IMG/VR virus record: IMGVR_UViG_2609460344_000015
Span: 1 to 7,513 of that record
Origin: a virus
Taxonomy: Duplodnaviria; Heunggongvirae; Uroviricota; Caudoviricetes
Reading direction: 5' to 3' (one strand)
Length of the DNA stretch: 7,513 bases
The notes below the pieces were generated by a model that saw nothing but the letters and a program-made list of their open reading frames with translations, did no database searches and was not told the origin of the DNA. The position numbers and the translations under genes were made by a program. Below are positions 164 through 6,227 of this stretch, piece by piece; position 1 is the first letter of the stretch; every line of letters starts with the position of its first letter.

Positions 164-2124
164 ATGGCATTTAAACACTATGACGTGGTCAGGGCGGCGT
201 CGCCGTCAGACCTTGCGGAGCGACTGACACAAAAACTGAAGGAGGGGTGGCAGCCATTTGGCAGTCCGGTGGCCATCACGCCTTATACCCTGATGCAGGC
301 CATTGCGGCGGAAGGTGATGTCACCACACCTGTGGTGGTGAAGCCGTCGGATGGAGAAGGCGCAGTTATCAGCACCACCAGCAACTCGGAGTATTACTTT
401 GTTGTTGCCCTGGCCGGGCAGTCAAACGGTATGGCGTATGGTGAAGGGCTTCCGCTGCCGGAGACATATGACCGTCCGGACCCGCGCATTAAACAGCTGG
501 CGCGTCGCAGCACTGTCACGCCGGGTGGTGCGTCCTGTAACTACAATGACATTATTCCTGCGGACCACTGCCTGCATGATGTTCAGGATTTGAGTAAGTT
601 TTCACACCCGAAAGCCAGCGCAGCTCAGTATGGATGCGTGGGGCAGGGATTACATATCGCGAAGAAATTGTTGCCGTTTATTCCGGCGAATGCCGGTATT
701 CTTCTGGTTCCGTGCTGCCGTGGTGGTTCTGCATTTTTGGCGGGCGATGAAGGTACCTTCAGCGAATCCACCGGCGCAAGCGAGACCTCGGCACGCTGGG
801 GTGTAGATAAGCCACTGTACAAGGACCTGCTTACCCGTACTCAGGCCGCACTGAAGGCTAACCCTAAAAATATTCTGCTTGCAGTGGTCTGGATGCAGGG
901 CGAGTTTGATTTGAAACAGGGTGCATACGCCACTCAGCCGGGGCTGTTTGATTCCATGGTGGAAAAATATCGTTCTGACCTGTCGGAATTCGGAGGTCAG
1001 TGTCTCGGGGGCTCTCCGTCATCGGTTCCCTGGATTTGTGGCGACACGACCTACTACTGGAAGCAGACTTATTCTTCGCAATACGATGCGGTGTATGGTG
1101 CATACAAGACGAAATCCGCAAAAAAAATCTTCTTTGTGCCGTTTAGACGGATGAAAACGGGCGAAATGTGGGTACCAACGAGCCGTCAGAAGATCCGGAT
1201 GTTGCGGATATTGGGTATTACGGAGCCGGTGGTCGAACGGACGCCAAAACCTGGACGACGGCCGACCGTAAAACGCATTTTGGATCATGGGCACGTCGTG
1301 GGATTATTTCCGACCGTCTGGCAACGGCGATTCTTGTGCATGCCGGGAGAACCGCTGAATTCATTACCGGAAAACAGCCTGATACGGTGAAGCCCACCGG
1401 ACCTTCCGGTGAAGGTACGGAGAGAGAGCCGGAAGCCCCGGTCAGTAACCGAACCCTGATGAGTCTGCTGGCGTCCGGCGAAGACCTGGCATCACAGGGC
1501 TGGCGCTATTATCACAAACCGGCGAGCGGAGACAATGTTAACAAAAACATTGCTGAAGCGGTGGTCAGTGATGCGGGGGCTACGGGAGGTAAGGCCCTGC
1601 AACTGAATAAACCGGAAAACCACATCTGGTTTCTGGAGCATGATGCAGCCGGACAGGGAGTGGAGTTACTGAAGAAGGGGGGACGTGTGAGCGTACGGTT
1701 TAAGTTGCCGGGTTCACTGGTGCCGAATCGGTTTGCCCTGGGCATTTACTGGCAGTTGTCGTCCCTGCCGGAGGGAGTGACGCTGGCAGAGGAAGGCAAC
1801 GACATGCTGATGTCCTTCTTCCTGCAGACGGATGCGACGAACCTGAACGCGATGTACCACAAGAAGCCGAATGCGAAGCTGGATACGTTCGGGGTCTTTG
1901 ATAACGGATGGCACACACTGGCTTTTGAGTTTGCCGGAAACAACAGCATTCAGGTGACGCCGGTACTGGATGAGAAACGGGGGACGCCGTTCACACTGGT
2001 GAAATCTCCGGCATCAGGGGCGGCGGACAAACTGCAACTGACAGGCATATCAAAGGCGGCGACATATACGCTGCTGATTGACAGTGTGAAGGTGGAAGTG
2101 AACAACGCGGATGCCGCGGCATGA
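164..2124 (+). pseudogene. nanS-p: Prophage sialate O-acetylesterase (NanS-p / SASA family) split by a single-nucleotide frame break near 1145-1150
   Basis: SD GGGAGGA 153-159, ATG 164. N-terminal ORF (164..1390) contains the GQSN catalytic motif (FVVALAGQSNGMAYGEG) typical of SASA/SGNH esterases. Protein-like translation continues in the frame of ORF 1168..2124, which has TAG at 1144-1146 just upstream, while the 164 frame becomes Arg-rich nonsense until its stop at 1388-1390. The two parts sum to about 650 codons, matching my recollection of about 645 aa for intact prophage NanS-p. Confidence 0.7.
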
Positions 2125-2133
2125 TAAAAAAAG

Positions 2134-2162
2134 CCGCCAGCGGCAGGAACGGAAGCTGGCGG
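2134..2162 (-). terminator. Hairpin oriented as a minus-strand intrinsic terminator just downstream of the esterase stop
   Basis: 8-bp GC-rich stem CCGCCAGC (2134-2141) / GCTGGCGG (2155-2162), 13-nt loop; A7 at 2126-2132 on + gives a U7 tract after the hairpin on the - strand. No U-tract follows on +. Confidence 0.35.
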
Positions 2163-2259
2163 AGGTAATCCCAATGGAGAATGTAAAGAAAAGATGCTTT
2201 CGTATATCGGTTTTTTAAATGAAAGCAGTTCTCATTGTCAACCATAACGGTAAGAAACT

Positions 2260-2442
2260 ATGACATTTATTCATCAGGTGATGCTGTACTTCTGTACGGC
2301 GGTCTGTGTGCTGTATCTTCTTTCGGGTGGGTACAGGGCAGTGCGCGATTTCTGGCGCAGGCAGATTGATAAAAGGGCCGCAGAGAAAATCAGTGCCAGT
2401 CAGTCAGCCGGAACAAAACCCGAAGAGCCTCTCATTCCGTAG
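2260..2442 (+). CDS. Hypothetical small membrane protein (60 aa)
   Basis: ATG 2260 preceded by weak SD (taAGAAAct); translation has one hydrophobic helix (IHQVMLYFCTAVCVLYLLSGGY) then a charged tail. Not recognised by me. Confidence 0.4.
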   Translation: MTFIHQVMLYFCTAVCVLYLLSGGYRAVRDFWRRQIDKRAAEKISASQSAGTKPEEPLIP

Positions 2443-2479
2443 CAACTTTCTTAACAACACCTTTCAACGAGAAAATACC

Positions 2480-2749
2480 ATGTCAGAAATAAAATCGCTG
2501 GTCACTGCTGAAGCAGTGAAGGAAGTCCTGCGCTCTGAAGAAGTCAGAAGCGCACTGAAACAGCAACTTCGGCAGAACCTTGAGGCGCGTCTTGATGCAG
2601 AAGTGGATGCCATTCTGGATGAACTGCTGGGCGCACCGACTGTTCCGGAGCCGGAAGGCATTGCGGATGACAGTGCTGTTTCAGATGGCGTCGGGTCTCA
2701 GCCTGATGGTAGCAGTGAGCCTCAGCCTGACGGCGAAATGATGATGTAA
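2480..2749 (+). CDS. Hypothetical acidic protein (89 aa)
   Basis: ATG 2480 in frame with listed ORF 2306..2749; the upstream extension overlaps ORF 2260..2442 so the internal ATG is preferred. Translation MSEIKSLVTAEAVKEVLRSEE... is a helical N-half followed by an Asp/Glu/Pro/Ser-rich tail. SD is weak (GAGAAAA). Confidence 0.5.
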   Translation: MSEIKSLVTAEAVKEVLRSEEVRSALKQQLRQNLEARLDAEVDAILDELLGAPTVPEPEGIADDSAVSDGVGSQPDGSSEPQPDGEMMM

Positions 2750-4713: not shown

Positions 4714-4724
4714 ACTTTAAAAAG

Positions 4725-4811
4725 ATGAGTGCTGAACTTATTCGGGCAATGGCATTTGCCATTCGTATTGTGGCCATTGCTGTTCTGGTCTGGGCAATCC
4801 GTTGGTGGTGA
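4725..4811 (+). CDS. Small hydrophobic peptide P4 (28 aa), paralogue of P3
   Basis: ATG 4725; [28 protein letters not shown]; stop TGA 4809-4811 lies 1 nt before the Rz ATG 4813. SD weak. Confidence 0.3.
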
Positions 4812-4812
4812 T

Positions 4813-5280
4813 ATGAACCGTGTTCTGTGTGTGGTGATTATTGTCCTGCTGGTAGCCTGTGGTGTGCTTAGTCTGGGGCTGAATCATTACCGCGATAACG
4901 CCATCACCTACAAAGCGCAGCGCGATAAAAAAGTCAGTGAGCTGAAACTGGCGAATGCCACTATTACTGATATGCAGCAGCGCCAGCGCGATGTTGCTGC
5001 GCTCGATGCAAAATACTCGAGGGAATTAGCCGATGCGAGAGCTGAAAATGAAACTCTGCGTGCTGATGTTGCCGCTGGTCGTAAGCGCCTGCGGGTCAAC
5101 GCCACCTGCCCCGGTACCGTGCGTGAAGCCACCGGCACCTCCAGCGTGGATAATGCAACCGGCCCCCGACTGGCAGACACCGCTGAACGGGATTATTTCA
5201 TCCTCAGAGAACGGTTGATGACAATGCAGAAGCAGCTGGAAGGGGCGCAGGAATATATCCGCACTCAGTGCCTGAAATAA
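4813..5280 (+). CDS. Rz: Rz i-spanin (inner-membrane spanin subunit)
   Basis: 155 aa; N-terminal TM helix then [16 protein letters not shown]...[16 protein letters not shown]...[24 protein letters not shown], closely matching lambda Rz as I recall it. Listed ORF 4729..5280 is an upstream GTG extension; ATG 4813 gives the lambda-like N-terminus. Confidence 0.9.
5033..5218 (+). CDS. Rz1: Rz1 o-spanin (outer-membrane lipoprotein spanin), embedded in the +1 frame of Rz
   Basis: 61 aa; lipoprotein signal with lipobox LVVSAC, Pro-rich mature part [32 protein letters not shown] matching lambda Rz1 as I recall it; entirely inside Rz. Confidence 0.85.
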
Positions 5281-5322
5281 GTTTTGTTGATGCGCCGTAT
5301 CGTCGCTGTATTCCCTCATTAA

Positions 5323-6227
5323 CAGAGACCGCAGCCCGACAGGGAGACTCCTCTGCGCGAGTGTGCGGGGATATTTTCCCTGACACCGGACGGAAAGCTG
5401 ACCGCTAAAAATGCGGATATCAGTGGCAGTGTGAATGCGAACGCCGGGACGCTCAACAACGTCACGGTAAATGAAAACTGTACGATTAAGGGCATACCGG
5501 CCCGAAAGGTGAGCAGGGCGACCCGGGAGGTCCACAGGGACCGAAGGGCGACAAGGGGGATACAGGAGCTGCAGGCCCGGCGGGGCCACAGGGACCGAAA
5601 GGGGATACAGGAGCCGCAGGCCCGGCGGGGCCACAGGGACCGAAAGGGGATACAGGAGCCGCAGGCCCGGCGGGGCCACAGGGACCGAAAGGAAATACAG
5701 GAGCCGCAGGTCCGGCAGGGCCACAGGGACCAAAAGGGGATACAGGAGCCACAGGTCCGGCAGGACCGCAGGGACCGAAAGGGGATACGGGAGCCGCAGG
5801 CCCGGCAGGGCCACAGGGACCGAAAGGGGATACAGGAGCCACAGGTCCGGCAGGGCCACAGGGACCGAAAGGGGATACAGGATCCACAGGTCCGGCAGGT
5901 CCTCAGGGACCGAAAGGGGATACGGGAGCCGCAGGTCCGGCAGGACCACGGGGACCATCCGGAAGTCCTGACAGCGGGCTGTTTGGTGTCGGTTCTTTTG
6001 TCCTTGCGGCGTATTATGCGACGAGTTATTCGGGGGATATGGCACCGGGCGCAGCTATTGCCGGCTCATCACTGTCTGCATGTTGCCTTTCGAATGGTAC
6101 TCCCCTGGTTGCTTCCTCTCGTGTGGGGGAGACCCGTTTACCGGGCACGTGGCGTGCATGTAGTCCGGTAATATGGACATCTGCTGCAGGTACAAGACAG
6201 GCAGGATTATTTCAGCGCATATCATGA
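5323..6227 (+). pseudogene. 3' portion of a tail-fibre gene with collagen-like Gly-X-Y repeat region; 5'-truncated and frame-broken
   Basis: No start codon or RBS: translation ...[44 protein letters not shown] is open from the stop at 5320-5322 in the Rz frame. At about 5497-5503 the protein-like frame shifts to the one ending at TGA 6225-6227, giving [10 protein letters not shown]... collagen triplets and a globular C-terminus (...[31 protein letters not shown]...). Inserting one G in CCGGCCC (5497-5503) would join the frames as GIPGPKGEQ. Confidence 0.55.
5583..5942 (+). repeat. Eight tandem copies of a 45-bp unit encoding [15 protein letters not shown] (collagen-like triple-helix repeat)
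   Basis: GGGACCGAAAGG recurs at 5591, 5636, 5681, 5726 (one substitution), 5771, 5816, 5861, 5906, a strict 45-bp period; units differ by a few synonymous or conservative changes. Degenerate Gly-X-Y flanks extend from about 5499 to 5969. Confidence 0.85.

Follow-up and report, generated by a model that had tools for sequence, protein, structure and literature searches.

The cryptic prophages of Escherichia coli K-12, DLP12, Rac and Qin, keep their lysis cassettes. As is generally known, they have been reduced by deletions and have lost their morphogenesis genes, retain holin-endolysin-Rz/Rz1 together with fragments of tail-fibre genes, and carry frameshifts and insertion sequence (IS) insertions. 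The same kind of damage was met in the stretch of prophage DNA analysed here (7513 bases, called the window at its full length), whose gene content is that of the late region of a lambdoid, Stx-phage-like prophage, followed by fragments of the J and tail-fibre genes, a DUF4376 gene, a YkgJ-family gene and the end of potB. It differs from the three K-12 prophages in the location of the remnant at the 3' end of potB and in its Stx-phage-like late region (nanS-p, DUF1378, DUF826). According to an earlier note on this DNA, three of its genes (an esterase gene, a small late gene and the tail-fibre gene) each look broken by a single nucleotide missing at a short homopolymer.

The esterase gene has well-described relatives. 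NanS-p esterases of Stx and other lambdoid prophages, for example NanS-p of phage 933W, as well as chromosomal NanS/YjhS (structure 3PT5; 6YP6 is the C-terminal domain of NanS-p), have in common a DUF1737-SASA-C-terminal lectin-like architecture (PMC10462455). The NanS-p-type sialate O-acetylesterase pseudogene of the window (positions 164-2124, + strand) comprises DUF1737, SASA and a C-terminal DUF6645/lectin-like domain, and its position is like that of the nanS-p genes of Stx and lambdoid prophages, between the Q/stx region and the holin gene (PMC10462455).

The window is identical to the whole of contig JNRD01000120.1 in assembly GCA_000704505.1 of E. coli 2_460_02_S3_C3. This isolate was assigned to phylogroup A, sequence type (ST) ST3281 and serotype O111:H12, and its draft genome consists of 299 contigs (Richter et al. 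2018, PMC6222053, supplementary table). C1, C2 and C3 are three colonies from one stool sample with a common ST and serotype (ST3281, O111:H12), and the isolates were sequenced as 100-bp reads with the Illumina HiSeq 2000 and assembled with MaSuRCA (PMC6222053). When complete E. coli genomes and phages were searched with the whole window, no record covered at least 80 % of it, hence the exact arrangement is absent from those collections.

The lesions are best accounted for, with a probability of about 0.8, by lambdoid (Stx-phage-like) prophages decaying in the ordinary way in a gut isolate of E. coli (O111:H12/ST3281), seen through a short-read assembly confused by repeats. According to this explanation two single-base deletions would have been inherited, one of a lone T in the NanS-p-type esterase gene and the other an A6 to A5 slip in a 185-aa gene. 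Two illegitimate-recombination deletions with little or no microhomology, one from downstream of Rz into J and the other from J into the tail-fibre gene stf, would have cut the prophage at potB to a remnant composed of late-region and lysis genes plus the end of the tail-fibre gene. The apparent frameshift in the tail-fibre gene would then be the out-of-frame J'-'stf junction, and the assembler would have joined the esterase prophage and the potB remnant across a 169-bp stretch (2712-2880) identical in both.

The first lesion (Site 1) emerged when window positions 164-2124 were aligned with the intact gene of E. coli N32 (1962 nt, 653 aa); the alignment has one gap and 11 mismatches. The gap corresponds to one T missing between 1145 and 1146 on the + strand (GTTTA[T]GACGG), the window reading GTTTA-GACGG where the intact gene has GTTTATGACGG. 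The pseudogene is split in this way into a 408-aa open reading frame (ORF; 164-1390) and a downstream frame (1168-2124). The loss of one base near 1147, as claimed earlier, was borne out by the single gap relative to N32, but its location at a homopolymer was not, as the deleted nucleotide is a lone T and the A8 run at 1120-1127, 20 nt upstream, has kept its length. Contigs of the siblings C1 and C2, as well as two assemblies of metagenomes from ENA (ERZ27275984 and ERZ28581214), encode exactly the same truncated product of 408 aa; the contigs with this product match the window at 99.96-100 % nucleotide identity without indels. Among 260 complete E. coli genomes the T deletion was present at 0 of the 352 places that contain the segment.

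In the intact 653-aa protein, residues 73-391 align to NanS (PDB 3PT5) and residues 464-648 to the C-terminal domain of NanS-p (6YP6). The frameshift at approximately codon 328 is located upstream of His372 of the intact protein, the counterpart of the catalytic His of NanS in the alignment, and it also takes away the entire C-terminal domain. In this respect the window copy differs from the NanS-p group: the deletion of 1 nt leaves it devoid of both the residue aligned with the catalytic His and the C-terminal domain. We take the catalytic residues of NanS to be Ser19 and His301, a numbering that reportedly originates from Rangarajan et al. 2011 and that fits a constant offset of 11 residues in the 3PT5 alignment. 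The truncated 408-aa esterase would be expected to have no activity. As judged from its sequence, the esterase gene of the window is a pseudogene of the well-described NanS-p group and no new subtype (PMC10462455).

The second lesion (Site 2) lies in a gene for a 185-aa protein (3044-3600, + strand; PHROG 1085) with no function assigned, related to the C-terminal part of YdfR/DUF1327 proteins. In the window the gene consists of two pieces, a leader of 26 codons (3044-3124) and an ORF of 158 aa (3124-3600). In the intact comparator, from the Stx1c prophage of E. coli ST866, the gene is a single ORF of 558 nt, relative to which the window lacks one A: at 3107-3111 (+ strand) there is A5 where intact homologues have A6, which gives a -1 frameshift, and the A8 run 29 nt downstream is unchanged. 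In this case the break at one missing base in A5, as described in the earlier note, was confirmed. The A5 allele is also present on a 134-kb contig of E. coli DEC6E (the same potB locus; DEC6 is presumably O111:H12), in the independent assembly GCA_907175995.1 and in the siblings C1 and C2, and it was found at 0 of 333 places in 231 complete genomes. An exact-protein look-up with the 158-aa ORF as the A5 marker gave five contigs, two of which carry A6 (the ORF is short there because the contig begins within the gene) and one of which does not have the site; only DEC6E, GCA_907175995.1 and the siblings were counted as A5 carriers. Since the potB loci of DEC6E and sibling C2 are 99.97 % identical, A5 would most simply be a mutation inherited within the lineage, and it was probably generated by replication slippage (slipped-strand) in the A-run.

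The same gene in the complete genome of E. coli OkiPb01678 (locus 6055-6613) is annotated as frameshifted, and its neighbouring A-run is one base longer (+1, A8 to A9). It appears that either the 185-aa gene is repeatedly hit at A-runs or the OkiPb01678 record contains a homopolymer error.

Both the position of Site 2 within an A-run and the +1 change in the neighbouring A8 run in another genome would be in line with the single-base gaps being sites of programmed ribosomal frameshifting, transcriptional slippage or phase variation at the A-run. In the complete genomes, however, the in-frame allele was found in all copies, 333 of 333 at Site 2 and 352 of 352 at Site 1, so there is no sign of frequent switching. 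Moreover, no slippery heptamer of the X XXY YYZ type was seen when the overlap after 1146 was read by eye, and the Site 1 deletion itself creates a TAG stop codon in the downstream frame (1144-1146). Recoding or phase variation is the least probable of the explanations considered, and a very improbable one. Comparison with orthologous prophages, proposed in the earlier note as a check, showed the homologues to be intact in complete genomes at Sites 1 and 2, but the third site did not turn out to be a one-base loss. On the evidence of the assembled sequences, Sites 1 and 2 are genuine lineage-specific frameshift mutations in decaying prophage genes.

The earlier note had considered systematic homopolymer deletion errors in the assembly as an equally suitable alternative. 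In that case under-calling by the sequencing chemistry or the assembler would have produced all three breaks in genes intact in the real genome. In its favour, Site 2 is a -1 change in an A6 run and the assembly is a fragmented draft of 299 contigs. The homopolymer runs of the window were audited. There are 48 runs of at least 5 bases, 45 of which were testable, a run being regarded as testable if at least one independent comparator had identical 12-nt flanks. The run at 3107-3111 was the only one shorter than in most comparators; the remaining 44 of the 45 testable runs, including three A8, two A7 and one G7, were not shorter than in most relatives, and the A8, A7 and G7 runs were all in agreement with them. 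Five other discrepancies were due to single outlying comparators. Because of the audit result and the Illumina chemistry, systematic homopolymer under-calling was ruled out. Also, Site 1 is outside any homopolymer and the third site is a junction left by a 1.7-kb deletion. The two point alleles were, in addition, met in identical form in independent assemblies for which other assemblers had been used, including metagenome contigs (MEGAHIT-style and scaffold-style), DEC6E and GCA_907175995.1. The alternative is accordingly very improbable as the origin of the three breaks. What stands of the proposed common pattern is that Sites 1 and 2 are single-base deletions; only Site 2 is in a homopolymer, and the third site is a deletion junction.

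The tail-fibre gene had been claimed to be broken by a missing base at the GG in CCGGCCC (5497-5503). This motif is identical to that in the intact tail-fibre gene, and the frame is broken instead at the point 5496/5497 where J is joined to stf. Two deletion junctions were identified in this region by comparison with intact phage loci including that of ST866, synteny breaking sharply at both of them with the intervening genes missing. At junction 1 (5372/5373) the sequence downstream of Rz is joined, with a microhomology of 2 nt, to the interior of gpJ, and everything from the terminase through most of J is missing. Then follows a 124-bp internal fragment of the tail-tip/host-specificity gene J (5373-5496, + strand); in the alignment, window 5372-5495 corresponds to the gpJ interior at 6123-6246 of the ST866 locus with 98.4 % identity. 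At junction 2 (5496/5497) J runs, out of frame, into stf at nucleotide 509 of the latter, and from 5497 onwards the window corresponds to the interior of the tail-fibre gene (ST866 locus 7942 onwards). The sequence of junction 2 is ACGATTAAGGGCAT joined to ACCGGCCCGAAAGG; approximately 1.7 kb comprising the 3' end of J, lom and the 5' end of stf is gone, and the microhomology is imperfect, CGAT(T)AAGGG(C/G)AT.

Exact 40-nt strings of both junctions were found in the siblings C1 and C2 and in GCA_907175995.1, and because of this recurrence both junctions are to be regarded as real deletions. As for the impression of a frameshift, two-thirds of random fusions would be out of frame and would seem mendable by one base.

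What remains of stf is the 3' two-thirds of a collagen-repeat tail-fibre gene (5497-6227, + strand) without a start codon, containing an array of 45-nt collagen-like repeats in 8.9 copies (5556-5956). The array has one unit more in the window than in C1, C2 and GCA_907175995.1, the ORF across the junction encoding 246 aa vs 231 aa; the extra unit reflects either true expansion of the array or an error of the assembly. An exact-protein look-up with the 246-aa junction ORF matched only the same assembly, the siblings and GCA_907175995.1 having the 231-aa ORF with the junction still there.

The linkage of the lesions within one contig is a separate matter. In short-read drafts produced by Celera-type assemblers, surrogate placement of repeat unitigs can give redundant or chimeric contigs. 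Five contigs of GCA_000704505.1 (JNRD01000018, 097, 117, 120 and 128, the window being 120) contain the junction-spanning ORF and are nearly identical over the segment 2725-7513, which is bordered in them by three different left flanks and two right flanks. Contigs 018 (76.6 kb) and 128 both begin at 2725, the former leading to potB-potA-pepT-phoQP and the latter to an integrase gene, and contigs 097, 117 and 120 all stop at 7513. To the left, 097 has an intact 644-aa esterase, 117 an intact 647-aa esterase and 120 the T-deleted esterase. This resembles repeat-induced redundant and chimeric short-read contigs, with the same 4.8 kb placed in five contigs with alternative flanks and ends at branch points.

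The siblings have a different arrangement. In C2 one 56.7-kb contig carries, in order, IS-DUF968-RusA-IS-intact 644-aa esterase-holin-A5 gene-lysozyme-Rz-junction 1-junction 2-tfa-ykgJ-potB-potA...purB, including phoQP, the IS insertions being located upstream of the esterase gene in the potB remnant. In DEC6E and GCA_907175995.1 the remnant is likewise linked to an intact esterase. The T-deleted esterase contig of C2 ends at window 2780, and that of C1 continues to YdfR (330 aa), a 92 %-identical lysozyme, Rz, TerS, TerL' and J'. Up to 2880 the window is the same as the C1 esterase prophage, and from 2712 on it is the same as the potB remnant, except for position 3023. The 169-bp interval 2712-2880, identical in the esterase-bearing prophage and the potB remnant, is therefore the interval of the switch, and it is longer than the 100-bp reads. 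The assignment of haplotypes across it rests on the single edge bases 2711 and 2881, which have low specificity among these related prophages. The T deletion together with A5 and both junctions was found in the window only, among the contigs compared.

The esterase lesion thus probably belongs to a prophage other than the one with the remaining lesions, and the window would represent one enumerated path through the repeat. Instead, the contig could be physically real, C3 having a copy with the T-deleted esterase linked to the A5 gene and to the remnant, produced by inter-prophage recombination or present as a second tandem copy at potB. The private base A at 3023, the A/C difference at 7431, which divides the five contigs into two groups, and the contigs that run from the right end of the remnant to an integrase, as would fit tandem prophages, speak for such a copy. 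On the other side, the same 4.8 kb recurs in five contigs, of which three end together at the branch point 7513; the clonal siblings have one remnant contig each, linked to an intact 644-aa esterase, as do DEC6E and GCA_907175995.1; sister contig 097 differs from C2 by 49 mismatches and is a mosaic in its own right; and the switch falls within an identical stretch exceeding the read length. A physically real contig is unlikely on this balance, although not to the same degree as the explanations by base calling or recoding.

Several points nevertheless weigh against decay seen through a confused assembly. The lesions and the linkage of contigs were judged on assembled contigs rather than on raw reads, read pairs or depth, and a search of the literature on DEC6E yielded nothing of use about its serotype or sequencing method. 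A at 3023 and A at 7431 set the window apart from some sister contigs, as might be the case if an extra copy really existed. The 169-bp switch signature would be no different after homologous exchange between two prophages: a switch inside an identical stretch longer than the reads is typical of repeat-induced chimeric contigs, but a real inter-prophage recombinant would look alike. Finally, the siblings are separate colonies and a private rearrangement in C3 is possible.

The claim that the three lesions are in one locus holds for the contig, but since the clonal siblings have the broken esterase in one prophage and the remnant in another, there is probably no such physical locus; an assembly artefact of this kind had not been considered in the earlier note. 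The notion of prophage decay was upheld in so far as Sites 1 and 2 are true frameshifts recurring in independent assemblies. The third site is what a deletion left behind, and the presence of all three lesions side by side is probably an artefact of the assembly.

Some further observations concern the contigs compared. The esterase prophage of C1 (JNRB01000114.1, 8494-9411) is itself a remnant, in which a TerL fragment of 158 aa immediately precedes a J fragment (Ig_J_second). The 49 mismatches of JNRD01000097.1 to the potB locus of C2 seem, from comparison with the window, to be clustered in the repeated late region, and this contig looks like a mosaic consensus of several prophage copies. 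The A at window 3023, which changes Ala to Thr near the C-terminus of the holin, is unique, there being G in the four sister contigs, the siblings, DEC6E and the other compared phages; it represents either an erroneous consensus or a vestige of another copy. The contig end at 7513 is a branch point 32 nt into the 3' end of potB, from which alternative contigs lead to potB or to a phage integrase (loci 4790-6383 and 11876-13511 of two of the contigs compared). The path to the integrase is an attP-like join, which would point to prophages in tandem, to an excised circle or to faulty joining at the att core.

The lysis genes of the window were reported in the earlier note as intact together with tfa, and this was confirmed. 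The class II (P21 S-type) holin (2825-3040, + strand) has a full-length match to Pfam P21 holin S. The phage lysozyme (endolysin; 3637-4170, + strand) is intact and the exact protein occurs on 998 contigs; small ORFs go with it in the late region. The 155-aa Rz spanin (4813-5280, + strand) is open, with the exact protein on 12 contigs, and the frame of Rz1 (5033-5218, + strand), embedded in Rz, is open as well. The intact DUF4376 tail-fibre-associated (tfa-like) gene (6235-6843, + strand) encodes a protein found exactly on 90 contigs. The further idea that decay spares the lysis genes does not apply generally, as the endolysin is truncated in the closely related DEC6E remnant, which has lost everything from mid-endolysin to stf.

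The DEC6E remnant, otherwise 99.97 % identical, has deletions other than those of the window: the endolysin breaks off at window 3778, stf nt 145-508 follow, and then the tfa start at window 6237 (DEC6E locus 6981-7344). Its stf breakpoint, GGGGAT^ACCGG (ST866 locus 7941/7942; stf nt 508/509), is within 1-2 nt of the stf side of junction 2. Opposite halves of stf were kept, the 3' side fused to J in the window lineage and the 5' side fused to the tfa start in DEC6E. The breakpoint at nt 508/509 coincides with the start of the collagen-like repeat array and was used in two different deletions in two near-identical remnants of O111:H12. It is a speculative and rather improbable idea that this reflects a hot spot of illegitimate recombination or a shared ancestral rearrangement rather than coincidence, and equally improbable, as a separate matter, is retention by selection of the intact lysis cassette in a remnant devoid of every structural gene.

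The small genes for DUF1378 (2260-2442, + strand) and DUF826 (2480-2749, + strand) proteins, upstream of the holin gene, are intact. At the right end of the prophage a YkgJ-family cysteine-cluster protein gene (6988-7317, - strand) is present as cargo, and the window ends with the last 32 nt of the 3' end of potB (7482-7513, - strand), the region of the attachment site. The prophage at potB in the complete genome of E. coli ST866 has gpJ frameshifted (3295-6700) and the DUF4376 gene split into two ORFs (8635-9243); therefore, prophages at the potB site carry broken genes in an unrelated strain too.

In practical terms, the two point lesions can be annotated as true pseudogenes, and for the tail fibre a deletion junction should be entered in place of a frameshift. 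Gene linkage or lysis-sparing decay should not be inferred from this contig. The case also illustrates that, as an artefact, homopolymer errors matter less than redundant chimeric contigs when prophage-rich E. coli genomes are drafted from short reads. The value of the finding lies mainly in quality control, and the biology behind it is already known, namely the ordinary erosion of prophages.

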